64,000 nt of DNA, from NCBI GenBank assembly GCA_039932315.1, contig JBDTQG010000006.1, forward strand, positions 10,160 through 74,159, given 5' to 3'. The stretch is from Thermoanaerobaculia bacterium (lineage in GTDB: Bacteria; Acidobacteriota; Thermoanaerobaculia; Multivoradales; JAGPDF01). Below the pieces are notes generated by a model. That model saw nothing but the letters and a program-made list of their open reading frames with translations, did not search any database and was not told the DNA's origin. The translations under genes and the position numbers were made by a program. This document shows, in pieces, positions 10,798-33,677 of the stretch; within the stretch, counting starts at the first letter, position 1, and each line of letters opens with the position of its first letter.

Positions 10798-12768
10798 GTG
10801 CCTCTGGAGTCTTCCATGCTCAAGGTTTTTCGCGACAACCTGAAGTACCTCTCCTGGATCCTCTGGGTCGTCATCATCATTTTCATCGCCTTCGTCTTCG
10901 TCGACTTCGGCGGCGGTCTTTCCCGCGGCAAAGGGGCGACCAACGGGGCGGCGACGATCGGCTCCGACCACATCTCGATGGCCGAGTTCGAACGCGAGTA
11001 CCGGCGCCTCGATGCGCAGTACCGCCAGGCCTTCGGCGAGAACTTCACGCCCGAGATCGCCAAACAGATGAAGCTCCCGCTGCAGGCGCTCGACCGGCTC
11101 GTCGATCAGCGGCTGCTGCTCAACGAAGCCGACGACCGCGGTCTCACCGCCTCCGACAGCGAGGTGCAGGACGCGATCTTCGAAATCCCCGGAATGAAGG
11201 GCCCGAGCGGCGATTTCGTCGGCGACGAGACCTACAAGCGTTTCGTGCGCTCGAACGGCTATTCCGTGCGCGAGTTCGAGGACGCGATCCGCCGCCAGAT
11301 CGTCCTCACCAAACTGAACGTCATCTTCTCTTCGACGGTCGCGATCTCCGACGCCGAAGTCGAGCGTGCCTACCGCGATCAGGCCGACACCGCCGCGATC
11401 CGCTTCGTCGTTCTGCCGGCGAACGGCTTCCAGACTCAGGCCACGGTATCCGATGCCGAAGTGGCGAGCTTCTTCCAGAGCCACGCGGACGACTTCCGTC
11501 TGCCGGTGCAGCGGGTCGTCAACTACCTGCTCATCGACTCGGTGCGGACGCGCGCCAAGATCAACCCCGAACCCGCCGAGCTGCAGAGCTACTACGGCGC
11601 GCACAGCGACGAATTCAAGCAGGAAGAACAGGTCCACGCGCGTCACATCCTGCTCAAGGTCGACGACAAGCGCACCGACGCCGCCGCGGAGAGCCAGCTC
11701 TCGGCGATTCGCAAGCGGATCGAAGGGGGCGAGGATTTCGCCAAAGTCGCGGGTGAGGTTTCCGACGATCCGGGTTCCAAGGCGCGCGGTGGCGATCTCG
11801 GCTTCTTCGGCCGCGGCCGGATGATCAAGGAGTTCGAGGACGCCGCATTCGGCGCCGCACTCGGAACGATGGTCGGTCCGATCAAGACCAGCTTCGGTTA
11901 CCACCTGATCCAGGTGATCGAGAAGCACGACGCGGGTCAGCGGCCGTTCGCCGAAGTCGAGGCGCAGGTGCGCACGCGCCTCGCCGCCGAGCGCGCGGAC
12001 GCAGCGGCAGAAGCGAAGGCGACGGAGCTCGCTACGCGAATCGCCAGCGAGAAGCTCACCACCGAGGCGCAGCTCAAGGCGCTCGCGGACAACGACACGG
12101 TTTCGTTCGTGACCACGCCGGCATTCGGTCGTGAAGAGGTGGTTCCGGGTGTCGGCCGTGGCACGCCGTTCTCCGCGGCGGCATTCGCGCTCGAGCCGGG
12201 GAAGGTCTCGACACCGGTGAAGATCGCGCGCGGCTTCGCGATCCTCTCGCTGGTGCAGGAGAACCCGGAGCGCTCGCCGACGCTCGCCGAAGTCGAACCC
12301 CGCGTCCGGCCGGCGGCAATGCGCGCCAAGGCCGGACAGCTCGCGCTCGCGCGCCTCACCCAGGCTCGCGGCGAGCTCGCCTCGGGACGCACCCTTGACG
12401 AGGTCGCGAAGGAGCTCGGTGTCGAAGCGAAGGACAGTGGCGACTTCGGCCGCGGCGGGAACGTGGCCGGGATCGCCGATTCGCGCGCCGTCATCGACGC
12501 TGCGCTCGCGGCGAAGAGCGGCGACATCGGAACGCCGGTGCTCACCGATCAGGGAGCCATCCTGTTCCAGGTCACGAAGCGCACTGGATTCGATGCCGCA
12601 GCGTTCGCAACGGCTCGCGTCGAAACCCGCGAGAACCTCGAAAAGAACGAGGTCAATCGCCTGCTGGGATCGATCATCGAGCAGAAGAAGCACGAGACCA
12701 AGGTCCAGTACGACAAGACCCTGCTCGAGCGCTTCGGGCTGGTCGGAGACGACGCGAAGGGAACCTAG
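10798..12768 (+). CDS. ppiD: Periplasmic chaperone PpiD-like (SurA-N plus parvulin PPIase domain)
   Basis: N-terminal TM anchor (YLSWILWVVIIIFIAFVFV). Single PpiC/parvulin domain HARHILLKV...GGDLGFFGRGRMIKEFEDAAF...GYHLIQV. Length 656 aa, comparable to PpiD. Confidence 0.75.
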   Translation: MPLESSMLKVFRDNLKYLSWILWVVIIIFIAFVFVDFGGGLSRGKGATNGAATIGSDHISMAEFEREYRRLDAQYRQAFGENFTPEIAKQMKLPLQALDRLVDQRLLLNEADDRGLTASDSEVQDAIFEIPGMKGPSGDFVGDETYKRFVRSNGYSVREFEDAIRRQIVLTKLNVIFSSTVAISDAEVERAYRDQADTAAIRFVVLPANGFQTQATVSDAEVASFFQSHADDFRLPVQRVVNYLLIDSVRTRAKINPEPAELQSYYGAHSDEFKQEEQVHARHILLKVDDKRTDAAAESQLSAIRKRIEGGEDFAKVAGEVSDDPGSKARGGDLGFFGRGRMIKEFEDAAFGAALGTMVGPIKTSFGYHLIQVIEKHDAGQRPFAEVEAQVRTRLAAERADAAAEAKATELATRIASEKLTTEAQLKALADNDTVSFVTTPAFGREEVVPGVGRGTPFSAAAFALEPGKVSTPVKIARGFAILSLVQENPERSPTLAEVEPRVRPAAMRAKAGQLALARLTQARGELASGRTLDEVAKELGVEAKDSGDFGRGGNVAGIADSRAVIDAALAAKSGDIGTPVLTDQGAILFQVTKRTGFDAAAFATARVETRENLEKNEVNRLLGSIIEQKKHETKVQYDKTLLERFGLVGDDAKGT

Positions 12769-12794
12769 GGTCTTTCGCTTCGCCAAGTTCCCGG

Positions 12795-12829
12795 GAGCCG
12801 GAAAGAACTCTTTCCGGCTCTTTTTGTTT
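12795..12829 (+). terminator. Rho-independent terminator of ppiD
   Basis: Perfect hairpin GAGCCGGAAAG-aactc-TTTCCGGCTC followed by TTTTTGTTT, 27 nt after the ppiD stop. Confidence 0.7.
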
Positions 12830-12865
12830 CATCCGCCCGCGCTGCCCCGGCGCTAGACTTCTCTC

Positions 12866-13987
12866 ATGCACTTCGAAACCCTCGCCGTCCACGCCGGCGG
12901 CGAGCCCGACCCCGACACCGGGGCGGTCTCGCCACCGATTCACCTCGCCACGACATTCGTTCACGGCCCGGAATGCGAGCCGCTTTTCACGCACGCCTAC
13001 CAGCGCGAGGGCAATCCGACGCAGGATCGCCTCGAGACCGCGCTCGCAGCCCTCGAAGGCGGGGAAGCAGCGCTCGCCTTCGCTTCCGGAATGGCCGCGA
13101 CGGCGACCTTTCTCGAGTCGCTGCCGGCAGGGACGACCGTCGCTTTCCATCGCGACGTCTATTCGGGTGTCCGCAGTCTCGCGACCGACTTCCTCCCGCG
13201 CTGGGGAATGCACGCGCTGTTCGTCGATCTCGGCGATCGCGCGGAGCTCGCGAAGGCTTTCGCCGCCGGAACGACCTGGCTCTGGGCGGAGAGCCCGACG
13301 AATCCCCAGCTGGAGATTCTCGATCTCGCCAGGCTCGCGGTCGACGCGCATGCCGCCGGCGCTCGTCTTCTCGTCGATGGCACTTTCGCGACGCCGGCGC
13401 TTCAGCGTCCCCTCGCGCTCGGTGCCGATGTCGTGTTGCACTCGACGACCAAGTACATCAGCGGGCACAGCGACGTCCTCGGCGGAGCGTTGGTGTTTGC
13501 GCGTCGCGACGGCGACTACGAAGCCGTCGCCTCGGCACGGCGCCGGCTGGGCGGAACCGCGAGTCCGTTCAGCTCGTGGCTGGTCCTCCGCGGTCTCCGT
13601 TCGCTCGCCTGCCGCATGGAGCGCCACTCGGCGAATGCTCTCGCGGTTTCGCGCGGGCTCGCCGGGCACCCGGCGCTCGCCGATGTCGTCTATCCCGGGC
13701 TCGAGGCGCATCCCGGCCACGAGATCGCGCGCCGCCAGATGAGGGCCTACGGCGGCATGATCGCCCTGCGGGTTGCGGGAGGCCGGAAAGGTGCGGTCGG
13801 AGTGGCGTCACGGCTCAAGCTGTTTCTCAATGCGACGAGTCTCGGCGGCCCGGAAAGTCTGGTCGAACATCGCGCTTCGAGCGATGGACCCGGAACGACC
13901 ACGCCCGAAGATCTCCTGCGACTCTCGATCGGTCTCGAGCATCCCGACGATCTGCTCGCCGACCTGCGACAGGCGCTCGATCGGTGA
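12866..13987 (+). CDS. Cys/Met-metabolism PLP-dependent enzyme (cystathionine gamma-synthase/beta-lyase family)
   Basis: FASGMAAT...DVVLHSTTKYISGHSDVLGG, the PLP-lysine motif of the MetB/MetC/MetZ family. The MetB/MetC/MetZ sub-class cannot be resolved from sequence alone. Confidence 0.85.
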   Translation: MHFETLAVHAGGEPDPDTGAVSPPIHLATTFVHGPECEPLFTHAYQREGNPTQDRLETALAALEGGEAALAFASGMAATATFLESLPAGTTVAFHRDVYSGVRSLATDFLPRWGMHALFVDLGDRAELAKAFAAGTTWLWAESPTNPQLEILDLARLAVDAHAAGARLLVDGTFATPALQRPLALGADVVLHSTTKYISGHSDVLGGALVFARRDGDYEAVASARRRLGGTASPFSSWLVLRGLRSLACRMERHSANALAVSRGLAGHPALADVVYPGLEAHPGHEIARRQMRAYGGMIALRVAGGRKGAVGVASRLKLFLNATSLGGPESLVEHRASSDGPGTTTPEDLLRLSIGLEHPDDLLADLRQALDR

Positions 13988-21939: not shown

Positions 21940-22488
21940 TCAGTCCAGATTCAATCCAGTGGCCTTCCCGAGAACCCGCAAGATGGCGTGGCGTGCAATG
22001 TTTTCTGGCGAGGAGGCGGTGTTCCAGGCTTTGCCCGATGACTCGCCTCGCATGAGGATCTTCCCGTCCGCGGCCACGACACGGAGGATCACGTGCACTT
22101 CGGCACCCTCTTTGCCGAACTGACTCTGTCCTGCGTGCGGAATGTCGATCAGCAGAACCGCCGAGACTCCGAGTGCCGTAAGTGCTTCGGCGCGGCGCGA
22201 GTCGTCGTATCGATCTAGACCCATGGCCATCAGCCGCTCCATTTTCACGGAGGAAACCACGGTGCGAAACGGCAATTTTCGCGTTGCTGCAAGCGTCGAC
22301 TCCACTTGCGACTCGACTTCAGAGGAGTTGATGACTTCGTTGCCTTGCGTCACGAAGACGGCGATGCGGTCTAGCCCATCGGCCCAGCCTTTCGGTGCTA
22401 CGACCGTGTCTTTGTAACCCGAAGCCAACACAGCGTTCGCAACGAAAGACAACAGAAACATGAATCGTGCCGCCCTAGTCCGGTTCAC
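21940..22488 (-). CDS. Hypothetical secreted/lipoprotein (lower-GC island gene)
   Basis: Signal peptide MNRTRAARFMFLLSFVANAVLASG, no recognisable domain, and local GC clearly below the flanking sequence. Confidence 0.4.
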   Translation of the reverse strand: MNRTRAARFMFLLSFVANAVLASGYKDTVVAPKGWADGLDRIAVFVTQGNEVINSSEVESQVESTLAATRKLPFRTVVSSVKMERLMAMGLDRYDDSRRAEALTALGVSAVLLIDIPHAGQSQFGKEGAEVHVILRVVAADGKILMRGESSGKAWNTASSPENIARHAILRVLGKATGLNLD

Positions 22489-22564
22489 TGTGTTCCATCT
22501 CCTTTCCCGCTCCGGTTGATCGGAAGGCAGACCCGCGCCACCGAGACGACGATCAACCTTGAAT

Positions 22565-23407
22565 CTACCTTCGTCGAGTCGCAGCTAGCACGAGCCGTCT
22601 CATGGTCGCGAGGGTGCGGCACGAGCCATCGCGATGCATCATGCGGTGACAGTTCGAACAGACAATGGCCAGATCGCCAAGCAAGGTGCGTCGAGAAGCG
22701 GAACTGGCCGCGAGTGGAGCGACGTGATGCACCTCACAGTAGCCTTCGCCGAGGGCACCGTAGGCGCTCTCAAAGTCAAACTCGCAAACTTCACATCGGA
22801 GCGGCTCTCCATCCTTCGTTACTTGCTCGATCTTTCGTCGACGAAGGATGCGATCGCGCTCGCGCGCATAGTGGATCATGAGGCGCCGACGTCCCTCGCT
22901 CGCGCCGTCTGGAAGGTCGTCGACATCACTAGCGACAACTTCCCGTTTCGGGCCTCTGCGAAGCGATGGCCACAACGATCCCGTCGTCGGATTCCTCCCG
23001 ACGACGAGCTGAAAGAGTGCCTCGGCTTCCTCGATCGAGAGACGGAACAACGTACCCGCAGCGCCGGACTTGAGGAATACGGAACCTTTGAGGGCGACGT
23101 GCTTTCTTGCTGCTCCGATGTGAACCGGATGTTCCAGATAGGAAGTCAGATAGATGACGTGGAAGCGCGCGACAACGCCTCGCCTCACTGGTCTGGTTGG
23201 AACCGAGACAATTTCGCCCAGTCCAACGACCTGGGTCTTGGGCGCTGCTTCCCAGAAAAAGACCCTATCGCCGGCTTTCCATCCACTGGGCGCAGCACGC
23301 GTCTGCCAGACATCCGCTGCCCCCGGAGCGAGCCAAGCCGCAAGGTCGTTCCTAGCCGGCCTGCCTTTCACCACCCAGTACCGACTTGTCACAGGTTCAC
23401 CGACCAT
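22565..23407 (-). CDS. EVE(PUA-like)-HNH fusion endonuclease (modification-dependent, type IV-like restriction enzyme architecture)
   Basis: The N-terminus SRYWVVKGRP...DRVFFWEAAPKTQVVGLGEIVS is an EVE/PUA-like modified-base reader fold. The C-terminal HNH motif is CEVCEFDF...YCEVHHVAPLA...CSNCHRMMH. Confidence 0.7.
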   Translation of the reverse strand: MVGEPVTSRYWVVKGRPARNDLAAWLAPGAADVWQTRAAPSGWKAGDRVFFWEAAPKTQVVGLGEIVSVPTRPVRRGVVARFHVIYLTSYLEHPVHIGAARKHVALKGSVFLKSGAAGTLFRLSIEEAEALFQLVVGRNPTTGSLWPSLRRGPKREVVASDVDDLPDGASEGRRRLMIHYARERDRILRRRKIEQVTKDGEPLRCEVCEFDFESAYGALGEGYCEVHHVAPLAASSASRRTLLGDLAIVCSNCHRMMHRDGSCRTLATMRRLVLAATRRR

Positions 23408-23905
23408 CTAGTCGCGAACAGCGTCTACGATGAGGTCCCATCTCGAACGAAACGGCTCCAGACTCCAGCCTGTACCCTCCCTTAGAGGGGGCAGGTGCAC
23501 CGCACGAAACTTGTTCTCCTTGCTCCTAGCCTGACCGTTCATGCCAGGAGTTGCTTCCCAGATCCTATGGTTCTCAGAAACTGCTTTCGAGAGTTCGAGC
23601 GAAGGAATCACGAAGAACTCGAAGGCCTTCGTGGATTCAGGCGCTGGAATTCCAGCAAGGACCCAGAAGAAGGACTTGCCGAAGTCCTTTTCCGCCTTCA
23701 GCCCGACGGCGCATGTCCCCCCACCTGGAATGAATGCTTTCACCTGGACGTGGACGAATCGAGTTGCAACAGAATTGCTTACGAGAATGTCCGTGTTCGG
23801 GCAGTTTCCCATCGTCACGACCGCGACCAACTCACGCCGACAGAGCTCTCCTGCAACAAAGAACTGGGCCGCGTCCGCTCGATACCCCTTGTCGCTACGC
23901 GTCAT
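23408..23905 (-). CDS. Hypothetical small protein with PD-(D/E)XK-like motif, co-operonic with the RM enzyme and EVE-HNH
   Basis: VVTMGNCPNTDILV...FVHVQVKA (hydrophobic strand-D ... hydrophobic-Q-x-K). Its start overlaps the RM gene stop by 11 nt and its stop abuts the EVE-HNH start. Confidence 0.4.
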   Translation of the reverse strand: MTRSDKGYRADAAQFFVAGELCRRELVAVVTMGNCPNTDILVSNSVATRFVHVQVKAFIPGGGTCAVGLKAEKDFGKSFFWVLAGIPAPESTKAFEFFVIPSLELSKAVSENHRIWEATPGMNGQARSKENKFRAVHLPPLREGTGWSLEPFRSRWDLIVDAVRD

Positions 23906-26819
23906 CTCTGATTTGTCCCGCCCTCTCGAGATTCAGGGCTAGCAACCGCTCGAGGATCTGCTCGTCGGTGAGATCGCTCGGCCAGCCATACGCCGTGAAC
24001 ACCGCCTCGTCGAGTTTCTTGTGCGCGAGGTCGAGCCAGGCGGGGCGTTCGTTGTAGAGGTTGGTGAGTGTCCGCTTGGCGAGCTTCTTCGCCGCCTCGG
24101 CATCGCGCGCCACGATCCGCGGCCAGCGCACCGTTCCCATTCCTCGCGCGTCGGCCTCGTGCACGAATCTCTTCCAGGGCCCGTCCACCGAACCCGGAAA
24201 CTCCAACACCTCCTCCTTCGTCCACTCCGGCGGATTCAGCCAGGCTCGCCGCAGGTCGTCCAGCTGTTTCGCCGCAGCGGTGATGGCGCCCGCTACGTGG
24301 TTTGCTGGTAAAGGAAAAGGAAAAGTCTCGAAGCATGTAGTGGGTGTATACCGAAATCCGCTTTCCTTCTCTCGTAACTGCGTCCCCTGCGCCAACGCCC
24401 AAACTTCATGGAGTCTCGAGTGTAGGACCCCGAATTCATAGTCCTCCGAGAATGCGAAAGCGACGATGGCATCGGTGGCCAGATTCTCCGGCGTGGACCA
24501 GACGAAAAGACGATGCTTAGAGACGCGCGGGGTTACGATGAAGCGATCACGACTTCGAAGAGCGGCCCTCATTGCCTTCTGCGGGTCACCTAGAATCCAC
24601 CATCTTGACGCCCTTGTCGCCCTTCGATTTTTCTCGCGAACTGGCTTCACAACTCGCTCCAGAAATGCGAAGGAAGCTCCATACAGGGCAGCTTCTGAAA
24701 CGCCCACCTCTGGCGGCATGTCGATTATCCAAAGCGTTCCTGGTCGCCGGGTGAGGGAGAGACCATTGAGCCACGGTCTCACGACATCCGAAGTTGGGCG
24801 CCCATGAGGGTTGGGCGTGTGCAGCTCCGCGACGGCCTCTTCCTCATTCAAATCAAAGGGCCCGTGAATCGCCGCTCCAATGAAGGAAAGGGTTGAACTC
24901 GGTACTAGCGTCAGCGCTGTCGAAGTAGCAGCTCCTGCGGAGAGATTCGCGTTGATCCGAACAACTGCCTTCCCATCAACAGTCTTGTCCTTATACGAAC
25001 CATCGTCGAAGCCCACCATGGCAACATGAACGTTAGCGCCATCAAGAATCCACTCTCGGTCGCTCCAGGCCCAGAAGATGTCGCCGGAAGCCATGATGCG
25101 CTCGAGAACGGCGCGATTGGCCCCTCCCCGAATTCCTTGGGTGGCGAGAAGGCCGGCACGCTGTGCCTGGTTTTCTTCTATTGAGCTTCGGGCTTTCTCG
25201 AACCAGTAGCAGCAAAGATCAGATTGACCAGGAATACGCCCGCCGTAGAGCTTCCGAACGGCTTCGACGTACTCATCTCCGAGCTCGCCGCGCATCATCT
25301 TGTCGCCGAGAAACGGCGGATTGCCGACGATGAAGTCGACTTTGGGCCAGGTGGGTTCTTGGGGGTTCTCGGGGTCGGTGAGGTCGAGGATGGCGTCTTT
25401 GTTTTCGATGTTGCTCATCGCCTGGAGGATCGGTTCTTTCCAGGTGGTGGTGCCGTGCTGGCGGAGCCACTGGAGGTAGCCGATCCAGACGGTCATCTGG
25501 GCGAGCTCGTGGGCGTACTGGTTGATCTCGATGCCGTAGAGCTGCCAAGGACCGACGCCGACGCGGAGAGGGGCCTGGAAACCGCGATCGAGCATGAAGT
25601 CGTAGACCTCGCTCTCGAGATCTTTCAACTTGCGCAGCGTCACGTAGAGGAAGTTCCCCGATCCGCAAGCTGGGTCGAGGACCTTGATCTTCTCCAGACG
25701 ATCCAGGAAACGCAGCGCGAAGAGTTCGGCCTCGGCCTTTGCCTTCCTGTGCTCGTTCGCCGAGAGCGGTTTCCCTGGTGCCGCAGCGTCATCCTTCCGT
25801 CCCGTTGCGAGCAATCGATCGACGAGCGCGCCAGTTTCCGCCCACTCCCGGCGGAGCGGCGCCATGACGACCGGCTCGACCAGCGTCTCGATGTCCTCCC
25901 GGCTGGTGTAGTGCGCCCCCAGCTGTGCGCGCTTCGCCGGATCCAGGCCGCGTTCGAAGAGCGTGCCGAAGATCGACGGATCGATCGCGCTCCAGTCGAG
26001 CCGTGCGGCCGAGGCGAGAAGTGCCAACTCCTCTTCCGAAAGCGCCAGCGCGGAGGCGTCGTCGAAGAGACTGCCGTTGATGTGCGGAATCCGGTCGACA
26101 CCGAAGAAACCGCCGTCGGCCATCTTGCGGAAGAGATCGCCGACCAGTGTTTCGAAGAGCTCCGGCTTACCGCGCGTCGCTTCGAACAGCTTGGAGGCGA
26201 CCTCATTCGGCAGCAGGCCGATATCTTCGGCAAAGAGCGCGAACAGAATCCGGTCGAGGAAGCGCGCGACGGCGCGCGGCTCGAAGCCGCGGTTGCGCAG
26301 GCGGAGGGCCAGCTCACCGAGCGCCTTGGCGGCATCGGCCGTGACGACCGGATTGATCTTCCCCGGCCGGAAGCGCTCGGGCTCGAAGAAGACCCAACGC
26401 AAAAGCTCGAGCTTCTCGGGCTGGACGAGCTCTTCGAGCGCGATCGGGTAGACGACGTGCTTGGCGTTCTGGAAGCTGGTGTGGATCTCGAGCCGGGCCG
26501 TGTCGCAGGTCACCAGCAGAGGCGGGTTCTCGAGGTCCGCCCGGTATTCGTCGAGCTGCTTCCAGGCCGCGTCGAGGTCCTTGTGCTTGCCCTTGTATTC
26601 GAGAGCGAAGAAGCCGCGCTTCCAGACATCGGCGAAACCGTCGCTGCCGCCGCGCTTCTCAGCGCCCTTCTCGAAGCAAAACGATTCGCCGGTCGGATCG
26701 AGCGCCGCGGGCTTGCCGTGCCCGACCAGCTCGCAGAGGTCGAGAAAATGCTCCTGCGCCGCCGAGCGCTCCTTGAGCGTCGCGGCCTTCCACTTGCGGA
26801 CGAAGTCGCGGGGGGTCAT
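23895..26819 (-). CDS. Single-chain type IIL/IIG restriction-modification enzyme (MmeI-family-like: N-terminal PD-(D/E)XK nuclease, N6-adenine methyltransferase, TRD)
   Basis: The N-terminal nuclease motif is FADVWKRGFFALEYKGKHKDL (D-x9-E-x-K). The SAM-MTase motifs are VLDPACGSGNFL (motif I) and IVGNPPFLG (motif IV, NPPF). A ~400-aa C-terminal region is a candidate target-recognition domain. Length 974 aa. Confidence 0.8.
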   Translation of the reverse strand: MTPRDFVRKWKAATLKERSAAQEHFLDLCELVGHGKPAALDPTGESFCFEKGAEKRGGSDGFADVWKRGFFALEYKGKHKDLDAAWKQLDEYRADLENPPLLVTCDTARLEIHTSFQNAKHVVYPIALEELVQPEKLELLRWVFFEPERFRPGKINPVVTADAAKALGELALRLRNRGFEPRAVARFLDRILFALFAEDIGLLPNEVASKLFEATRGKPELFETLVGDLFRKMADGGFFGVDRIPHINGSLFDDASALALSEEELALLASAARLDWSAIDPSIFGTLFERGLDPAKRAQLGAHYTSREDIETLVEPVVMAPLRREWAETGALVDRLLATGRKDDAAAPGKPLSANEHRKAKAEAELFALRFLDRLEKIKVLDPACGSGNFLYVTLRKLKDLESEVYDFMLDRGFQAPLRVGVGPWQLYGIEINQYAHELAQMTVWIGYLQWLRQHGTTTWKEPILQAMSNIENKDAILDLTDPENPQEPTWPKVDFIVGNPPFLGDKMMRGELGDEYVEAVRKLYGGRIPGQSDLCCYWFEKARSSIEENQAQRAGLLATQGIRGGANRAVLERIMASGDIFWAWSDREWILDGANVHVAMVGFDDGSYKDKTVDGKAVVRINANLSAGAATSTALTLVPSSTLSFIGAAIHGPFDLNEEEAVAELHTPNPHGRPTSDVVRPWLNGLSLTRRPGTLWIIDMPPEVGVSEAALYGASFAFLERVVKPVREKNRRATRASRWWILGDPQKAMRAALRSRDRFIVTPRVSKHRLFVWSTPENLATDAIVAFAFSEDYEFGVLHSRLHEVWALAQGTQLREKESGFRYTPTTCFETFPFPLPANHVAGAITAAAKQLDDLRRAWLNPPEWTKEEVLEFPGSVDGPWKRFVHEADARGMGTVRWPRIVARDAEAAKKLAKRTLTNLYNERPAWLDLAHKKLDEAVFTAYGWPSDLTDEQILERLLALNLERAGQIRDDA

Positions 26820-26840
26820 GTGGCGCGAGCGCTGCCGACG

Positions 26841-27107
26841 TCAGCCGGCGCGTTTCACAGGACGGGAATGACTTCGCGCACCCGCGAGCAATCCGGCGAC
26901 GCTCAAGTCTTCAACGATCGCGGGCCAGTGCATGCCGTCGTCGTCGCCGAGCAGCTCCCAGTTCTGTCGCTCGTTCGCATCCGCAGCCAGGAGGCGAGGA
27001 AACCAGACCAGGGGCGCCGAGATTCGGCGGCCGTCGGCAAGCTCGACGGATATCTCGTTGTCCGAGATCTCAACGCCACGCGCCAGTGGGCGCCCATGTA
27101 CACGCAT
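26841..27107 (-). CDS. DUF2442-domain protein (copy A)
   Basis: MRVHGRPLARGVEISDNEISVELADGRRISAPLVWFPRLLAADANERQNWELLGDDDGMHWPAIVEDLSVAGLL. 79% identical to copy B at 29703..29978. Confidence 0.6.
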   Translation of the reverse strand: MRVHGRPLARGVEISDNEISVELADGRRISAPLVWFPRLLAADANERQNWELLGDDDGMHWPAIVEDLSVAGLLAGARSHSRPVKRAG

Positions 27108-27113
27108 TCGTAC

Positions 27114-28427
27114 CTAAGGTTCGGTTGCCGACCATTCGAGGAAGTTGCCGGTTTCGAACGCTGACCAGAAGATGGTTGCACTTCGATCGTAGAATGTACC
27201 CGCGGGGTCAGCCCTGATCTCAACTCTAATTCGCGGAGAGCTGGATGGAGGCGCCATCGTATAGTGGAGTACAGCTCCTGGTTGCAAGAAGGACTCTACG
27301 ATCGCTGCCTTGCAAAAACCCACCGGCGGCGGTGCTGGACCGGACGGCACAAAGGCGAGCTCGACTTCCGCGTTGGCGCAGTCGAGCTCCAGGCTTAGGT
27401 GAACGCTGTAGTCGTCGGCGGTCGCGGCTATTCGATCCGCGCCGGTCATAGCAAATCGAATCATGTTGACATCTTCGGCCACAAGGCCCGAAAGTCGCGT
27501 TCCGGAACCAATCTTCGAGTACATAAGAGATTGCGTCCCGGGGTGCTGAAGCGAAGACGCGACGAATTCATTCGCGGAGGCCGCGTAGTTGCTGCCTGTC
27601 GGAAGTACAGTTAGAGATCGGGAAAAAGAAGCCTGTTGAATTGTGGTGCTATCGATCAGGACTGGATCGTTGTCAGAGCGTCGAAACCAAGAAACCGATT
27701 GCACCTGCATGGGTTGAATCGGGCAGTTTGGGCCAGGGCAAGGGGGGCAACATGGAGTGCACGCGGTAGAGCCCGAACCTTGAAGGGCTGCGAGTCGCGG
27801 CAATTCCAGTTCCTGGAATGCCGGAATGAACGGGCATGCGTTGTTGTGAATATCTGTGCGGTCGCCGGGTGCCGAGCCCTGCGAAACATTTGTAGCATTG
27901 ACAGATGCCGCAAGACTAGTCAGCTGACCGCAGCCGCTTGGCCCGTCAAGATCGCAGACGCCCGTTCTCCAGTACTTCGCGTCGTTGTAGAGACCTCCGT
28001 CCTCCGACACGTCAAGCTCAACAAGATTTGAATGCCCAAGGCCCATCGCGCAATGCCCGAGCTCGTGAAGTACCACCCATTGTAGGCTGGCTTTCCCGGA
28101 CGGAGCGGGTTCATTGGAGGTCCAACAATCGAAGCAGTTTCCGTACCTTGCCTTCAGTTCGTTCCAAGTTTCGACCGCCGACAAAAGTGGCAAGAGTAGC
28201 CCCTCGCTTCCAGCTTCGACACAAATGCCAATTTCAATCGCCCCACCAGCCTGGAGATAACCCACAGGATGCACGATTGCAAACGGCGGAACGTAGTTTG
28301 GATCGGTCGAGGGGAGTCGACGGGTGAAGCGGTCGATCTCGAAATAGGTGCCGGCAGAAAGATCCGAAGTCATGGCCGCAGCGAGCGCAACCCCTAGCAG
28401 CACCAGTCGAACTCGCGTCAGTTTCAC
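27114..28427 (-). CDS. Secreted metzincin-like zinc metalloprotease ending in the GFExG-x4-W tail
   Basis: Signal peptide MKLTRVRLVLLGVALAAAMT, then the zinc-binding motif VVLHELGHCAMGLGHS (HExxHxxGxxH) and a Cys/Pro-rich linker. The C-terminus is FWSAFETGNFLEWSATEP*. GC is lower than the genome background. Confidence 0.6.
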   Translation of the reverse strand: MKLTRVRLVLLGVALAAAMTSDLSAGTYFEIDRFTRRLPSTDPNYVPPFAIVHPVGYLQAGGAIEIGICVEAGSEGLLLPLLSAVETWNELKARYGNCFDCWTSNEPAPSGKASLQWVVLHELGHCAMGLGHSNLVELDVSEDGGLYNDAKYWRTGVCDLDGPSGCGQLTSLAASVNATNVSQGSAPGDRTDIHNNACPFIPAFQELELPRLAALQGSGSTACTPCCPPCPGPNCPIQPMQVQSVSWFRRSDNDPVLIDSTTIQQASFSRSLTVLPTGSNYAASANEFVASSLQHPGTQSLMYSKIGSGTRLSGLVAEDVNMIRFAMTGADRIAATADDYSVHLSLELDCANAEVELAFVPSGPAPPPVGFCKAAIVESFLQPGAVLHYTMAPPSSSPRIRVEIRADPAGTFYDRSATIFWSAFETGNFLEWSATEP

Positions 28428-29041
28428 GTACCCTCCTCAGCCGATCGGAGCCGCATCAACCAGCCCTTCAGCTTCTCTCCAAACCTGGCGATCCCTTCGA
28501 GGGCGCGTATATCGGGACGCTTCGTCCGGTAGCTGCTGAAGGGCTCGAGTGCGAAGGAAACGGTAGGCGACGCGACTCGCACTCCGCGTACCTCGACGGA
28601 CTTAAAGTTAACCGTCACGACGCACCCCGTCCCCGGCTCAGAAACGCCCGCATGAAATCTTCGACCGTCCGGAAGCACGCCATAGCTGGGCTCGAGCTCC
28701 TGATGTATAGCGGAAAGGTCTGCCCCTACGACTTCGTAGTCGACCAAGTCTGCCAGCGCCTCCCGCAGCTCCTTGCGATTTATCATAATTCCAGGGGATG
28801 ACGCGGCTCGCTGTCCCCCGGAACGAGTAGTGCGCCTCTGCAACCAGCCATCGCCAAAGAGCTCGAACTGCTCGAGGCCCGGGGCGAAAATGTCCTTAAT
28901 CTGAATCGTCACTACGACAACGTCAGGGTTCGTTGAAGCAGAGAAGTCTCTTGCAGGGGGTTCGGAAGCGCTCTGAGCCCCTAGAGTCAGGCCAAGAATC
29001 CCCACACAGCACATTGCAATTGCGAGTGGTGTCTGTTTCAT
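28424..29041 (-). CDS. Hypothetical secreted protein (island gene)
   Basis: Signal peptide MKQTPLAIAMCCVGILGLTLGAQSA, no recognisable domain, lower GC. Confidence 0.4.
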   Translation of the reverse strand: MKQTPLAIAMCCVGILGLTLGAQSASEPPARDFSASTNPDVVVVTIQIKDIFAPGLEQFELFGDGWLQRRTTRSGGQRAASSPGIMINRKELREALADLVDYEVVGADLSAIHQELEPSYGVLPDGRRFHAGVSEPGTGCVVTVNFKSVEVRGVRVASPTVSFALEPFSSYRTKRPDIRALEGIARFGEKLKGWLMRLRSAEEGT

Positions 29042-29065
29042 GGAGCGCTCCTTTTCGTGCGTCGT

Positions 29066-29662
29066 CTATTGTACGCCTGCGCTCACCGGACCCGGCAGAA
29101 GCAAACGAGCGACCTGACTTGGCTCGAGCGCGCGGTTTCGCAGGCGTTGCGCGAGGTCGCCGAGCGCTTTCGCGGCTTCCGCGGTGACGACCGGATTGAT
29201 TCTTCCGGGGCGGAACTTTTCCGGTTCGAAGAAGATCGCCCGCACGAGCTCGAGCTTGTCGGGCTGCGTGAGCTCCTCGAGGGCGATCGGGTAGACGACG
29301 TGTTTCGTGTTCTGAAAGCTGGTGTGAACCTCGAGCCTCGCGGTGTCACACGTGACGAGAAGCGGTGGGTTCTCGAGATCGGCGCGATACTCGTCGAGCT
29401 GTTTCCAGGCGCTATCGAGGTCTTTGTGCTTGCCCTTGTATTCCCAGGCGAAGAAGCCGCGCTTCCAGACGTCGGCGAAGCCGTCGCTGCCACCGCGCTT
29501 TTCAGCGCCTTTTTCGAAGCAGAACGACTCGCCCGTCGGATCAAGTGCCGCGGGCTTGCCGTGCCCGACGAGCTCACAGAGGTCGAGAAAGTGCTCCTGC
29601 GCCGCCGAGCGCTCCTTGAGCGTCGCGGCTTTCCACTTCTTCACGAAGTCGCGAGGAGTCAC
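29066..29662 (-). pseudogene. Truncated, diverged second copy of the RM-enzyme N-terminal nuclease domain (remnant of a related type IIL cassette)
   Basis: The first ~180 aa are ~90% identical to the 23895..26819 product, including an intact FADVWKRGFFAWEYKGKHKDL. The reading frame then diverges and stops, with no MTase or TRD following. Confidence 0.65.
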
Positions 29663-29702
29663 GATCGGAGCGCCACGGATCGGATGCGTCTGCGGGCGCC
29701 GG

Positions 29703-29978
29703 TCAGCCGGCGCGTTTCAAGGGTCGCGAGTGGCTTCGCGCACCCGCGAGCAGGCCGGCGACGCTCAGGTCCTCGTCAATGGAGGGCCAGTGGATCCCCT
29801 CACCGTCCCCCAGGAGCTCCCAGTTCTGACGTTCCGCCGCGTCTGCAGCGAGGAGGCGCGGAAACCAGACCAGCGGCGCCGAAATGCGTCGGCCATCCGC
29901 CAACTCCACGGCGAGCTCGTCGTCAGTGATTTCGACCCGCCGCGCCAAGGGCCGCAACTCAAGCACTGAAGAAATCAT
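29703..29978 (-). CDS. DUF2442-domain protein (copy B)
   Basis: Start set at MISSVLELRPLARRVEITDDELAVELADGRRISAPLVWFPRLLAADAAERQNWELLGDGEGIHW by alignment with copy A. Confidence 0.6.
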   Translation of the reverse strand: MISSVLELRPLARRVEITDDELAVELADGRRISAPLVWFPRLLAADAAERQNWELLGDGEGIHWPSIDEDLSVAGLLAGARSHSRPLKRAG

Positions 29979-30186
29979 TCCAAGCCTCCTTGAATCTCGC
30001 CCCATTCTCTTCGACCAGTCGCTGGATCTCGAACAGTTCGTGTGGGCGAAAGCCTGTGGATCCTGCCAGCCCGACCGGTTCGAGCCAAAACTTGGCCAGC
30101 ATTCGCTCTCGGCGCACATGAATATGGAGCGGCTCGAAACCCTCGTTCCCATAGAAAAAGAACCGATAGGGCCCTATCCGCGTCAC
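29959..30186 (-). CDS. DUF4160-domain protein (partner of DUF2442; putative TA-like pair)
   Basis: MTRIGPYRFFFYGNEGFEPLHIHVRRERMLAKFWLEPV. Overlaps the downstream DUF2442 gene start. Confidence 0.6.
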   Translation of the reverse strand: MTRIGPYRFFFYGNEGFEPLHIHVRRERMLAKFWLEPVGLAGSTGFRPHELFEIQRLVEENGARFKEAWNDFFSA

Positions 30187-30262
30187 CGTAGGAGACTCAG
30201 CTTCAGAATAGCAGGGAGAAGCCGGGCGTAAACCACGCTCCTGTCGGGTCTAGAATGCCCCC

Positions 30263-31312
30263 ATGCCCTCACCGCCCTCCGACCGTGTTCTCTCGGGTGA
30301 GCTCGAGATGGCGGAGGCTTCGGTCGAGCACTCGCTCCGACCGAAGCAGCTGACGGAGTACGTCGGGCAGGACCGGATCGTCGAGAATCTGAAGGTCTTC
30401 ATCCGCGCCGCGCGGGAGCGCGGGGAGCCGCTCGATCACGTGCTGCTCTTCGGCCCGCCGGGGCTGGGGAAGACGACTCTCGCGCACATCCTGGCGAAGG
30501 AGATGGACGCGCCGCTCCGCACGACCGCCGGGCCGGTGCTCGAGCGCGCGGGCGACCTCGCGGCGATCCTCACCAATCTGCAGGAGGGCGACGTTCTCTT
30601 CGTCGACGAGATCCATCGTCTCGGGCCGTCCGTCGAGGAGATCCTCTATCCCGCGCTCGAAGACTTCAAGCTCGACCTCGTCGTCGGGCAGGGGCCGGCG
30701 GCGCGCATCGTCAAGATCGATCTGCCGCGTTTCACGCTCGTCGGCGCGACGACGCGCGCCGGGCTCATCTCGTCGCCGCTCCGTGCGCGATTTGGCATCG
30801 TCCATCGGCTCGACTTCTATCCCCCGGCGCAGCTCGCGCGGATCGTGAAGCGTTCGGCCGAGCTTCTCGGCGTGGCGTCGGATGCGGCAGGTCTCGATGA
30901 GCTCGCGCGCCGGAGCCGCGGCACCCCGCGCATCGCGAACCGGCTGCTTCGCCGGGTGCGCGACTTCGCGCAGGTCGACGCCCATCTGCCGGGGATCGAT
31001 CTCGCGATGGCGAAAAAGGCGCTGGCGCTCCTCGAGGTCGACGACTTCGGCTTCGACGAGCTCGACCGGCGATTCCTCTCCGTGCTGATCGAAGTCTACG
31101 GCGGCGGCCCGGCCGGAATCCAGGCGATCGCCGCCGCGATCGGCGAAGACCGCGGCACGCTCGAGGATCTCTACGAGCCGTACCTCCTGCAGGAGGGCTT
31201 CCTGCAGCGCACGCCGCGCGGACGGGTCGCCACCCGGCGCGCCTACGACCATCTCGGCTACCCCCCACCCGCCTCGACGCCGGGCAGCGGCACGCTGTTC
31301 GATCCCTCCTAG
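30263..31312 (+). CDS. ruvB: Holliday junction branch-migration ATPase RuvB
   Basis: [23 protein letters not shown]...[18 protein letters not shown] (Walker A)...LFVDEIHRL (Walker B)...[16 protein letters not shown], then a winged-helix C-terminus. Confidence 0.95.
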
Positions 31313-31319
31313 CGGTCCA

Positions 31320-33677
31320 TCACGGGCAGGTGTCGAACCCTTCCGTGTCGAGGATGGGCGCGAACGGCTGGTTCAAGGGGCGATGGTAGGTCTTCGAGAT
31401 GTTCCGTAGCGTGTCGGTGACGCGCAGGTTGACCTCGACGTCGGTCGTGCCGCCGGCGAAGAGCCAGTAGTTGTCGAATCCGGATAGTCCGCAGGCGTCG
31501 ATCACCTTCACGACGAGCTCGATGTTCGCGGCCTCGAAGAACCAGAACGTGCCGGTGTCGCCGGTCAGGGGCGCCGCGATGGCGGCGCCGGCGGCGCCCG
31601 CTGCGGTGCGCCAATCGGCTTCGACGCGGAAGCGGCCGCCGCCGAGACAGAGGGTGTGCGCCCCGGGAACGCAGCTCCCCCCGCCGAGGAACGGCAGCGC
31701 AGGACCTTCCGGAGCGCTCTGCGTCGTGATCGGGGGCGAGAGTTCGGTGCCAGCCTCCTCCGCACCCTCCGTGCAATCCAGAAACTCACCATCGAGAATG
31801 GGTGCGAAGCTCTCGGCCTGCGGATTCTGGTAGGTCTTGCCGCGGCCGGTCGCGGTGTCGAAGACGAAGAGCTCGACTTCGAGATTGGTCAGGCCTGCGC
31901 TGTACGACCAGATGCGCTGGTTGAAGCCGCAGCCGTCGACGATCTTCGTCAAGACCTCGACGTTCGCGGGATCGAAAAACCAGAAGTAACCGCTGTCGCC
32001 GGTAAGCGCCACGCCGTGCGCGCGGCCCGCGGCCCCGGCCGGCGTCGCCCAGTCGCCCTCGACGCGGTAGCGGCCGCCGCCGAGACAGAGGCCGTAGTCG
32101 TCGGCGACGCACGGCTCGGGATCCCAGCGGCTGTTCACCCGCTGCCAGAACTGATTCATCGTCAGGCCCGCGATCGTGCCCAGACCGAGCCGGGCGCGCT
32201 CGCGGGCGAGCGTCCGGCGGAGCGCCGGCGAGCCCTCGGCTTCGAAGGCGTCGAGAATGCGGTTCAAGTCACCGGCCATGTCGGTGGTCACCCTCGCGCC
32301 ACCGCCCGCCAGCAGGGAACCGAGACCGTCGACCCAGGCGTCCTCCGAGAGGATGAGGTCGGCGAGCAGAGTGGGGCGGGAGACGAACGTGCGGAGGATG
32401 GCCGGCGAGAGCGTGTCGTAGAGCGCCGCGTAATACCGCCCGGCCGGTGTACTCGCCATCACCTCGTCGCGCACCGCCCGCAGCGTCGCGATCGCGTCGA
32501 CCGGCCCGCCCCAGGCATGCAAGCCCGGAGCGCCGTCCGGTGCGACGCCTCCGGAGGCGGACGACGCGTTGGGCAACAACCCGGCCAAACTTCCGGTCTC
32601 TGCCGGCGAGTAGCCCAGGAGCTCCAGATCCCGGCGCCACGCGGAGAGCGTCGTGAAGGAGCAGTCGTCGGTATAGGCCATGTACAGGAGCTTGAAAGGG
32701 TCGGCGAGCTGCGCCCCGACAGCCCCCGTGAGCTCGATGAGGGTCACGTAATCCCCGTGGAAGAAAGAGAGGCCCACCAGCCCGTTGACGGAGCCGGCCG
32801 CGACCGCCGCCGGGAAAGCGTACGGCGAGCCGTTGAGGCTGAAGGTGAAGGGAATGGCGACATTCGACGGCCGCGAGAGTCGCACCGTGAGCGGAGCAAC
32901 GCCGGAGTGGTCCATCGGCTGGGGGTGCATGGCGATCGGCCCCTGTACGGTCAGCAAGCGGCCGCTCTCGCCGAGAAGACGAATCCAGATCGGATCGGCG
33001 CCAGAGGCCCCGCGCGACTCGACCCGAAAGTCGTCGAAGTCGATCTCGAAGACATGCTCGAAGACCCCTCCCTGACTCGACTGGAAGCCGGAATCGACCC
33101 AGAGTCCGATAAGCAGAGGCGCGGCGGTGGCAGAAAAATCGGGCTGCACGGGGGCGTCCGTGGCGGTGAACTCACCAGCTACGAGGTCTCCGAGCGTCGC
33201 CTCCTGCCAGACCTGGGTGGGTTGATTTCCCTGCCAGCTGAAGATCTTTCGACTCGAAACGAATTTCCTGCCGCTCTGCACCAGCAGAACCTGGACCCCG
33301 ATGGCGCGGTTCGAGTAGAAGGATGGGCTCTCGCCTTCGAAGTGGGCGCGGAAGCGGCCCGAAACCGTGAAGGAGGTGAGGGCTCCGTCGCGAGACGGAT
33401 CGTAGATAGCGGCCGGCGAGGCCACACCCGCGACCTTGTGCGAGAGCAGCGGAGCCGTGTGGCGATGACGCACCGTCAGGTAGGAATTGTCGTAGGAAAA
33501 ATGGACGATCTCGATCAGGGGATCGGGTTGGGGAACGACGAAGTTCCACGCGCTGAGCTCGTGATCCTCGAACACGAGCTCGAGACTTTGTGCTTCGATC
33601 GCGCTCGGCCGCCCGAGGCGGACAGCAAGGAGCACGAGGAGCGCGAAGATGCGGAGCCGGATCTTGTGGGCGAGCAT
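31320..33677 (-). CDS. Large secreted protein of unknown function with two C-terminal ~105-aa tandem repeat domains
   Basis: Start at MLAHKIRLRIFALLVLLAVRLG (signal peptide). The two C-terminal repeats are CLGGGRYRVEGDWATPAGAAGRAHGVALTGDSGYFWFFDPANVEV...FAPILD and CLGGGRFRVEADWRTAAGAAGAAIAAPLTGDTGTFWFFEAANIEL...FAPILDTEGFDTCP*. Confidence 0.5.
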   Translation of the reverse strand: MLAHKIRLRIFALLVLLAVRLGRPSAIEAQSLELVFEDHELSAWNFVVPQPDPLIEIVHFSYDNSYLTVRHRHTAPLLSHKVAGVASPAAIYDPSRDGALTSFTVSGRFRAHFEGESPSFYSNRAIGVQVLLVQSGRKFVSSRKIFSWQGNQPTQVWQEATLGDLVAGEFTATDAPVQPDFSATAAPLLIGLWVDSGFQSSQGGVFEHVFEIDFDDFRVESRGASGADPIWIRLLGESGRLLTVQGPIAMHPQPMDHSGVAPLTVRLSRPSNVAIPFTFSLNGSPYAFPAAVAAGSVNGLVGLSFFHGDYVTLIELTGAVGAQLADPFKLLYMAYTDDCSFTTLSAWRRDLELLGYSPAETGSLAGLLPNASSASGGVAPDGAPGLHAWGGPVDAIATLRAVRDEVMASTPAGRYYAALYDTLSPAILRTFVSRPTLLADLILSEDAWVDGLGSLLAGGGARVTTDMAGDLNRILDAFEAEGSPALRRTLARERARLGLGTIAGLTMNQFWQRVNSRWDPEPCVADDYGLCLGGGRYRVEGDWATPAGAAGRAHGVALTGDSGYFWFFDPANVEVLTKIVDGCGFNQRIWSYSAGLTNLEVELFVFDTATGRGKTYQNPQAESFAPILDGEFLDCTEGAEEAGTELSPPITTQSAPEGPALPFLGGGSCVPGAHTLCLGGGRFRVEADWRTAAGAAGAAIAAPLTGDTGTFWFFEAANIELVVKVIDACGLSGFDNYWLFAGGTTDVEVNLRVTDTLRNISKTYHRPLNQPFAPILDTEGFDTCP

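Follow-up and report, generated by a model that had tools for sequence, protein, structure and literature searches.

Restriction-modification (RM) genes undergo allelic substitution and decay at hot spots, where differing or partly deleted alleles are found at one conserved position (Furuta, Abe and Kobayashi 2010, PMC2853133). Sequential displacement by homology-facilitated illegitimate recombination, as described for the type VI secretion system effector-immunity genes of Vibrio cholerae and for Rhs C-terminal displacement, similarly adds incoming modules beside older remnants (PMC5361080, PMC3240628). Here, we analysed a 64,000-nucleotide stretch of contig JBDTQG010000006.1 from a Thermoanaerobaculia bacterium of the Acidobacteriota (hereafter the window, to which all unprefixed positions refer). 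Next to ruvB it harbours an ORF of 198 codons, called stub B below, that codes for the N-terminal nuclease domain of an MmeI-family RM enzyme. We consider it likely that stub B is a remnant of cassette turnover and decay at a ruvB-adjacent defence hot spot, probably a harmless one.

In the scenario that we propose, this site would hold, in the clade at large, a small defence cassette composed of a toxin-antitoxin (TA) pair followed by a single-polypeptide MmeI-type RM gene, and the genome analysed here carries two diverged alleles of that cassette. The ruvB-proximal one, layer B, consists of an intact DUF4160/DUF2442 pair and only the first ~190 codons of the MmeI gene. The distal one, layer A, is a 5'-truncated cassette with an orphan DUF2442 gene, no DUF4160 gene and an intact enzyme of 974 amino acids (aa), closest to the copy of the related locus L011 (loci of relatives are designated by L numbers). 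Stub B might have arisen by a deletion that removed the rest of the MmeI-B gene, or by a one-ended (homology-facilitated illegitimate) recombination that fused codon ~190 with foreign DNA. Either way, the sequence on the other side of the junction is the upstream region of an unrelated unit of two genes coding for 205 and 437 aa (unit U).

The two layers form a direct repeat (Table 1). The copies align by blastn over 835 columns with 79.6% identity and 4 gap openings (E = 0), and no third copy was found within the window. Homology begins at codon 6 of the DUF2442 gene and extends to ~codon 190 of the RM gene. Nucleotide identity is 83.1% in the first 540 nt of the RM gene (88.9% in the first 180 nt) and 77.9% in DUF2442, and at third codon positions it falls to 62% in the RM part (180 codons) and 52% in DUF2442. 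The longest identical runs do not exceed 38 nt and are found inside the MmeI 5' region. At the protein level, the nuclease domains of stub B and MmeI-A are 90% identical, and the two DUF2442 proteins share 85.5% identity over 83 residues. On the minus strand, starting from the divergent ruvB, the order of the genes is DUF4160, DUF2442-B, stub B, 205-aa, 437-aa, DUF2442-A, MmeI-A, 165-aa and EVE-HNH, with every gap of this same-strand array being 40 nt or less. A preliminary description of this DNA, made by eye, had reported that the 5' part of the RM gene and DUF2442 are repeated, that both copies have an intact catalytic motif, that copy B alone keeps a DUF4160 partner, and that the fragment has a start codon and an open frame of 198 codons. 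The blastn alignment and the Pfam assignments bear out these coordinates and contents, down to the D-x9-E-x-K motif present in both copies. The extent of the repeat holds as well, and its identity is lower than the 85-90% estimated then.

In MmeI, the nuclease domain corresponds to residues 1-155 and the spacer to residues 156-300 (PMC4833311). Stub B aligns with residues ~13-196 of MmeI, while the family profile matches residues 13-245. Based on these published borders, it encompasses the whole nuclease domain and ~40 residues of the spacer. Its DVWKRGFFAWEYK segment aligns with D70...E80-M-K82 of MmeI (5HR4), and the corresponding D64, E74 and K76 do not vary across the family alignment, which includes the N-terminus of copy A. 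The GTG start codon is also found in the orthologues of L005, L011, L012 and L014. The AlphaFold2 (AF2) model of the protein has a mean confidence score (pLDDT) of 87.4, with residues 1-150 above 90 and a low-scoring tail, and its best structural matches in Foldseek are with the Type IIL enzyme DrdV. Nevertheless, MmeI_N is the only Pfam domain of stub B, and the homology ends at ~codon 190. From its sequence, we thus classify it as a fragment of an MmeI-family member and not as a member enzyme. Unlike MmeI and DrdV, it has neither methyltransferase nor target recognition domain (TRD) and lacks most of the spacer; it should therefore be unable to recognise or methylate DNA.

Copy A, in contrast with the stub, is predicted to be an intact MmeI-type (Type IIL) enzyme. 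It shares with MmeI and DrdV the order PD-ExK nuclease, helical spacer, gamma-class N6-adenine methyltransferase, TRD and C-terminal bundle, all in one polypeptide. The protein harbours the nuclease motif DVWKRGFFALEYK and the methyltransferase motifs DPACGSGNFL and NPPF, in agreement with the motifs of the MmeI family, and PADLOC identifies it as REase_MTase_IIG (E 8.6e-273). As a member of this family, it would be expected to methylate a single strand and to cut ~20 nt away from its recognition site.

DUF4160 and DUF2442 are the domain pair of the DhiT/DhiA TA system (PMC8198452, PMC12065111). Thus, layer B has a complete predicted TA pair and layer A an antitoxin homologue only. As in DhiT/DhiA of Dickeya dadantii (PMC8198452), the layer B genes are small and adjacent, the DUF4160 gene comes first, and the frames overlap; layer A does not show this arrangement, as DUF4160 is absent. 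Growth arrest by the toxin and its neutralisation by the antitoxin are known only from the D. dadantii pair (PMC8198452). In contrast with that system, the pair in the window is a putative one, its linkage to MmeI was found in this clade only, and copy A is accompanied only by an antitoxin homologue.

The two alleles of the RM gene differ mostly at synonymous sites. Over the first 180 codons, the synonymous divergence (dS) is 0.89 and the non-synonymous divergence (dN) 0.066, for a dN/dS of 0.074; for DUF2442 dN/dS is 0.063. A neighbour-joining (NJ) analysis of the 540 nt at the 5' end of the RM gene groups copy A with the L011 gene as sisters in 99.8% of bootstraps and A with B in 0 of 500, and it gives B no firm position within the clade. 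Because of this topology, together with the dS of 0.89 and the dN/dS of about 0.07, we regard A and B, on sequence grounds, as diverged alleles and not as the products of a duplication made in this genome. The preliminary description had argued against a recent tandem duplication, in line with these values. A duplication within this genome, either in tandem or through insertion of the 205/437 unit with a long target duplication, followed by divergence, would agree with the position of unit U between direct repeats both here (835 bp) and in L005 (370 bp of ruvB 5' sequence), and with the single copy of the repeat in genomes devoid of the unit (L011, L092); RM-linked insertions with long target duplications have been documented (PMC2853133). 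Yet the copies are not sister sequences, an inert duplicate would be expected to drift towards a dN/dS of ~0.5, and the repeated ruvB piece of L005 was imported, as indicated by its L012-type insertion, not duplicated. We therefore hold a local duplication to be extremely improbable. The insertion mechanism described by Nobusato, Furuta and Kobayashi matches the locus in that the 835-bp repeats flank a unit and are single-copy in L092 and in the second layer of L011. It fails in its defining feature, since the repeats, at 79.6% identity, are not sisters.

The substitutions specific to B indicate how long its sequence was maintained. We counted 26 synonymous and 11 non-synonymous changes unique to B, with all replacements being conservative. 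This distribution departs from neutrality (binomial p = 1.3e-9) and does not differ from that of the other lineages compared (Fisher p = 0.46), and dN/dS on the branch of B itself is ~0.13. These mostly synonymous, conservative changes indicate that, during almost the whole time since its separation, B belonged to a constrained, working gene.

The 3' end of stub B is of a different origin. In comparison with A, L011 and L005, one extra nucleotide is present in B at ~codon 186, and the MmeI homology is gone by ~codon 190. From ~29090, the sequence matches the region of L005 located upstream of its 205-aa gene, and at this junction, J1, the window and L005 have in common the string GCGCAGGCGTACAAT, followed by AAGGAG and then the ATG. 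The last ~8-12 codons of the stub and its TAG stop codon are in that upstream region. Thus, the end of the frame is an accidental read-through, after a frameshift, into foreign upstream sequence, and the alignments identify J1 as a non-homologous junction. At the second junction, J2, a new ATG for DUF2442-A follows the stop codon of the 437-aa gene by 6 nt, and the protein resembles other DUF2442 proteins only from codon 6. J2 is likewise non-homologous; no donor flank is visible at either junction, and J1 is compatible with a plain deletion.

As the source is a metagenome-assembled genome (MAG), and as no called gene on record encodes exactly the stub protein, we considered whether two co-occurring strains, one with ruvB/TA/MmeI-B and the other with ruvB/205/437/DUF2442/MmeI-A, had been stitched together into one contig. 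Such an assembly chimera is highly improbable. The two sides of J1 have no k-mer in common, and an error of the assembly graph at the longest runs shared by A and B would have yielded a chimeric gene, not this layout. Moreover, analogous layered remnants are present in independent assemblies of relatives.

The ruvB-adjacent locus of these relatives is highly variable. In L005, the order is ruvB, 205, 426, a 77-codon ruvB 5' fragment, HicA-HicB and MmeI, the protease being 85% identical to the 437-aa protein and the MmeI gene (12173-13456) being A-like with one in-frame stop. Most differences between the ruvB fragment (11384-11626) and L005's own ruvB are synonymous, and the fragment has the GSLL insertion of the ruvB of L012, from which it is separated by a dS of 0.26. 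These features indicate that it came in together with the cassette, the donor being L012-like. L011 has ruvB, DUF433-DUF5615, a 27-codon MmeI stub, a short reversed ruvB 5' remnant, DUF4160-DUF2442 and MmeI. In L012 (6001-6874), codons 1-215 of MmeI are joined out of frame to codons 890-955 by an internal deletion. L092 and L093 harbour ruvB, DUF4160-DUF2442 and MmeI codons 1-19 fused in frame to ~codon 865 onward (L092 7511-7660). The MmeI gene at this locus was thus independently damaged in L012, L092 and L005, and two of the loci retain marks of displacement, namely the L012-like ruvB piece of L005 and the ruvB remnant next to the 27-codon stub of L011. The stubs across the locus are 19, 27, 190 and 215 codons long, and three of them directly follow a recognised TA pair; that of L012 is preceded by two small genes with no significant Pfam assignment (a sub-threshold TIR-like match only).

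Based on these varied cassettes and independent stubs, we propose that the ruvB-adjacent site is a hot spot of exchange and decay of TA-MmeI cassettes, in agreement with the turnover of RM cassettes inferred in the preliminary description. In the closest relatives, the gene pair immediately 5' of MmeI is of a different TA type each time: HicA/HicB (L005 11693-12159), MqsR/MqsA (L006 352-1153), or DUF433/DUF5615 (PIN-like) and DUF4160/DUF2442 in the two layers of L011 (2305-2841 and 3047-3528), the latter type also being that of the window (29703-30186). A TA pair 5' of MmeI is not the norm in general. Of 63 loci whose upstream sequence was long enough, only a handful have a recognisable TA gene directly upstream, as judged by eye without Pfam, and the link is limited to the close clade.

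Which of the two layers came first was addressed with dS values. At the flanking genes, the window differs from its relatives by dS values of 0.80-1.09 (DAGK-like), 1.0-1.25 (205/437) and 0.84 (regulator), and the relatives differ among themselves by 0.47-0.70. The dS of B to the relatives is 0.89-1.19, i.e. at the level that separates this species from them, while that of A is 0.45-0.66, the level found among the relatives (0.51 for A and L011 over ~465-470 aligned codons). Judging from these values, it is slightly more likely that B is the older resident allele and that A, or the corresponding gene of L011, was exchanged horizontally. The loci of L011 and L005 show the same polarity, as the newcomer in each is the ruvB-distal layer. 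Taken as the sole yardstick, ruvB gives the opposite polarity to the other flanking genes, and we did not rely on it. We slightly favour a resident B truncated by a deletion or by an incoming segment; two old paralogous cassettes flanking the 205/437 unit, with the proximal one being deleted later, fit the data equally well. The preliminary description had favoured the replacement of an older, related cassette. Replacement in place is not established by the data: two unrelated conserved genes, of 205 and 437 aa, separate A and B, and in the most syntenic relative, L005, ruvB is directly beside these genes without a layer B.

The same arrangement of L005, which also shares the 828-aa gene next to ruvB and the 205/437 unit, would be expected if layer B were a fragment of an incoming foreign cassette, captured between ruvB and the unit by a ruvB-anchored, one-ended recombination. 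Layer B would then have been truncated on arrival and would never have been functional in this genome. By the ruvB yardstick alone, A looks co-diverged with the genome and B looks foreign. Furthermore, no B-like cassette was found in the sampled genomes. A genome scan for a B-like full-length gene or a strain of the same species gave matches of at most 86% amino-acid identity, which are A-like, one metagenome scan for a B-like cassette or such a strain gave none, and a search with DUF4160 returned nothing above 75% identity other than the source itself. We nevertheless find a captured fragment unlikely, albeit a possibility to be reckoned with. The dS values of the flanking genes (0.8-1.25) match B and not A, the identifiable newcomers in L011 and L005 are ruvB-distal layers with donor ruvB pieces, and layer B is collinear with the ruvB/DUF4160/DUF2442 haplotype of L092 and of the second layer of L011.

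As for its function, stub B is most likely an inert, non-functional remnant that is probably transcribed together with the adjacent genes and might be translated. The TA pair beside it probably protects the 5' end of the stub from further deletion, as deletions that remove an addictive pair would be counter-selected. The preliminary description had envisaged a free-standing nuclease domain, either inert or a regulatory decoy. The most developed form of this idea would be a functional free nuclease, expressed from the TA operon, that docks onto DNA-bound MmeI-A as an activator or a decoy and supplies or blocks the second catalytic centre required for a double-strand break, thereby tuning restriction. 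The intact D/E/K residues, the conserved GTG start, the confident and compact AF2 model, the dN/dS of ~0.13 on B's branch and the location of the stub in a tight array are all consistent with it. In addition, Type IIL enzymes cleave via dimers of nuclease domains (PMC4833311), and the outer subunits of DrdV dock mainly by nuclease-nuclease contacts (bioRxiv 10.1101/2021.01.06.425610). Nevertheless, several observations make a functional free nuclease improbable. No relative keeps a comparable stub, as the lengths vary and none is conserved; the C-terminus results from read-through; and a recent truncation would in any case leave dN/dS low. A fragment next to a full-length gene is not a general architecture either, since a second N-terminal copy was found in only one of 90 loci, that of L011, and has just 27 codons. 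Finally, a catalytic partner provided in trans would bypass the multi-site safeguard and would more likely be harmful. That the 198-aa protein is made and acts in trans on the full-length MmeI through the nuclease-nuclease interface is, in our estimation, very improbable. If it were true, the stub would alter the number of recognition sites needed or damp cutting, and it would represent a natural 'split' accessory subunit of a single-chain RM enzyme.

We also searched for a recurrent family of nuclease-domain-only proteins. The other short MmeI_N proteins in databases are products of split or decayed genes, which also argues against a free nuclease. In their genetic contexts, P0037, P0062, P0008 and P0021 correspond to MmeI genes that are split, frameshifted or decayed, and they do not share an architecture. 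These proteins come from the best 120 matches to the stub, all of them short; closer long relatives such as the 427-aa product of L005 are missing from this list, which appears biased towards short proteins. The similar end points of the short MmeI_N proteins can be explained by this selection of short, full-coverage matches.

Several points weigh against stub B being an inert product of cassette turnover with B as the resident allele. J1 and J2 are both defined on one MAG contig. The dS values of ruvB (0.46-0.60) would, alone, make A look vertically inherited, and L005 has no layer B. Protection by the TA pair is deduced from five stub-like remnants in five genomes. As the B branch shows no excess of replacements and the frame of the stub has stayed open, a free-standing protein may be under constraint. 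Lastly, the truncation occurs just past the nuclease domain, where a selected, domain-only gene would also end.

Table 1. Positions of the repeat copies, genes and junctions in the window
Feature	Position	Strand	Evidence or content
MmeI_N stub ORF (stub B), 198 codons, GTG start	29066..29662	-	Pfam MmeI_N E 1.2e-15; PADLOC REase_MTase_IIG E 5e-41
Repeat copy B	29121..29955	-	DUF2442-B (from codon 6), 40-nt spacer, MmeI codons 1 to ~181; blastn
Repeat copy A	26278..27093	-	DUF2442-A (from codon 6), 21-nt spacer, first ~181 codons of full-length MmeI-family gene; blastn
MmeI-family Type IIL/IIG RM gene, copy A, 974 aa	23895..26819	-	Pfam MmeI_N (E 5.2e-14), MmeI_hel, MmeI_Mtase (E 1.3e-31), MmeI_TRD; MmeI_C below threshold
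DUF4160, DhiT-type toxin homologue, layer B only	29959..30186	-	Pfam E 3.1e-15
DUF2442-B, DhiA-type antitoxin homologue	29703..29966	-	Pfam DUF2442 E 1.3e-19; GTG start overlapping DUF4160 stop by 8 nt
DUF2442-A, orphan antitoxin homologue	26841..27107	-	Pfam DUF2442
Junction J1, MmeI-B homology to upstream region of 205/437 unit	29085..29100	-	three-way alignments
Junction J2, 437-aa stop, then new DUF2442-A ATG	27108..27116	-	alignment
Unit U: 205-aa gene (29041-28424) and 437-aa HExxH metalloprotease-like gene (28427-27114)	27114..29041	-	homologous to L005 9321-11279
165-aa gene and 280-aa EVE-HNH gene	22565..23905	-	Pfam EVE and HNH; weak PADLOC mREase_IV match
ruvB, hot-spot border, divergent from cassette array	30263..31312	+	Pfam RuvB_N/lid/C; synteny in L005, L011, L012, L092

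Unit U, located between the two repeat copies, is not related to RM systems. Its 437-aa protein has a weak match to Peptidase_M10 in Pfam and a zinc-protease motif, HELGHxxxGLGH, and the N-termini of both proteins resemble signal peptides. The unit has its own TACAAT box and AAGGAG ribosome-binding site, with a G+C content of just 57-59% (27114-29090). It is found in differing genomic contexts among relatives. In the more distant L091, the 205/437 pair represents an ordinary chromosomal operon between glnA and a creatininase gene.

Downstream of MmeI-A, the 165-aa gene overlaps the RM gene by 11 nt and is separated from the EVE-HNH gene by 0 nt. The 165-aa protein has no family match. In an Akkermansia MAG, a 53%-identical homologue (L040 9904-10395) is encoded ~1 kb 3' of an MmeI homologue, and the 165-aa gene may thus be a conserved accessory gene. 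The EVE-HNH protein weakly matches Type IV methyl-directed restriction enzymes.

On the other side of the array, a conserved GGGTCTAGAATGCCCCC string ends at the ATG of ruvB (30243-30265), and a TAGAAT -10-like box is present ~7 nt upstream of the start. The string is also found in L005 (9163-9186 and ~11624-11647) and L011 (~2208-2230 and 2970-2990), being kept in the imported ruvB remnants. The position of the box suggests that the ruvB mRNA is leaderless or has a very short leader. The 828-aa secreted protein encoded next to ruvB is 53% identical to the 773-aa version of L005 and is absent from L011 and L012. It has an internal repeat of ~190 nt (73% identity in L005), at ~31486-31652 in the window and 7323-7517/7749-7940 in L005. 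The G+C content of the cassette region (22000-30200) is 56-67%, as opposed to 64-73% in the flanks, and this low-G+C island fits horizontal exchange, with ruvB bounding one side. Rfam, tRNA and promoter scans detected nothing relevant, and a terminator scan gave few weak consensus matches.

By itself, stub B represents an ordinary gene remnant, and its value lies in the local picture. In a little-studied clade of Acidobacteriota, one site beside ruvB holds exchangeable cassettes composed of TA pairs and single-chain restriction enzymes, and the layered stubs and imported ruvB pieces record gain, replacement, deletion and one-ended recombination. These stubs possibly show that an addictive TA pair can shield the start of a neighbouring gene from deletion. 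For annotation purposes, the ORF at 29066-29662 should carry the label of a truncated or pseudogene fragment and not that of a methyltransferase or restriction enzyme.

Among known mechanisms, phase-variable or shufflon-type switching of RM genes does not account for the locus, as the repeats are direct and the inverted pairs are short (up to 31 nt, 70-85% complementary). Pfam detected no recombinase among the nine genes called from 22565 to 30186, and no search for simple-sequence tracts was made. In contrast with the arrays formed by sequential displacement (PMC5361080, PMC3240628), the remnants found here are enzyme 5' stubs and TA pairs instead of 3' immunity genes, and a homologous anchor is hypothetical. 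Nevertheless, as in those arrays, we found an orphan protective gene (DUF2442-A), gene stubs and pieces of donor flanks (ruvB 5' sequences in L005 and L011). Similarly, the repeats differ from those at the RM hot spots of Furuta, Abe and Kobayashi (PMC2853133) in being 80%-identical alleles of different lineages and not a duplicated target, and in being separated by a two-gene unit that is not RM-related. Features in common with these hot spots are a conserved position at which the RM alleles differ or are partly deleted among related genomes, the repeats that flank inserted DNA, and an island with a G+C content below that of its surroundings. Stub B thus belongs with RM allelic substitution and decay, and probably with sequential displacement, and it represents a kind of feature already known.

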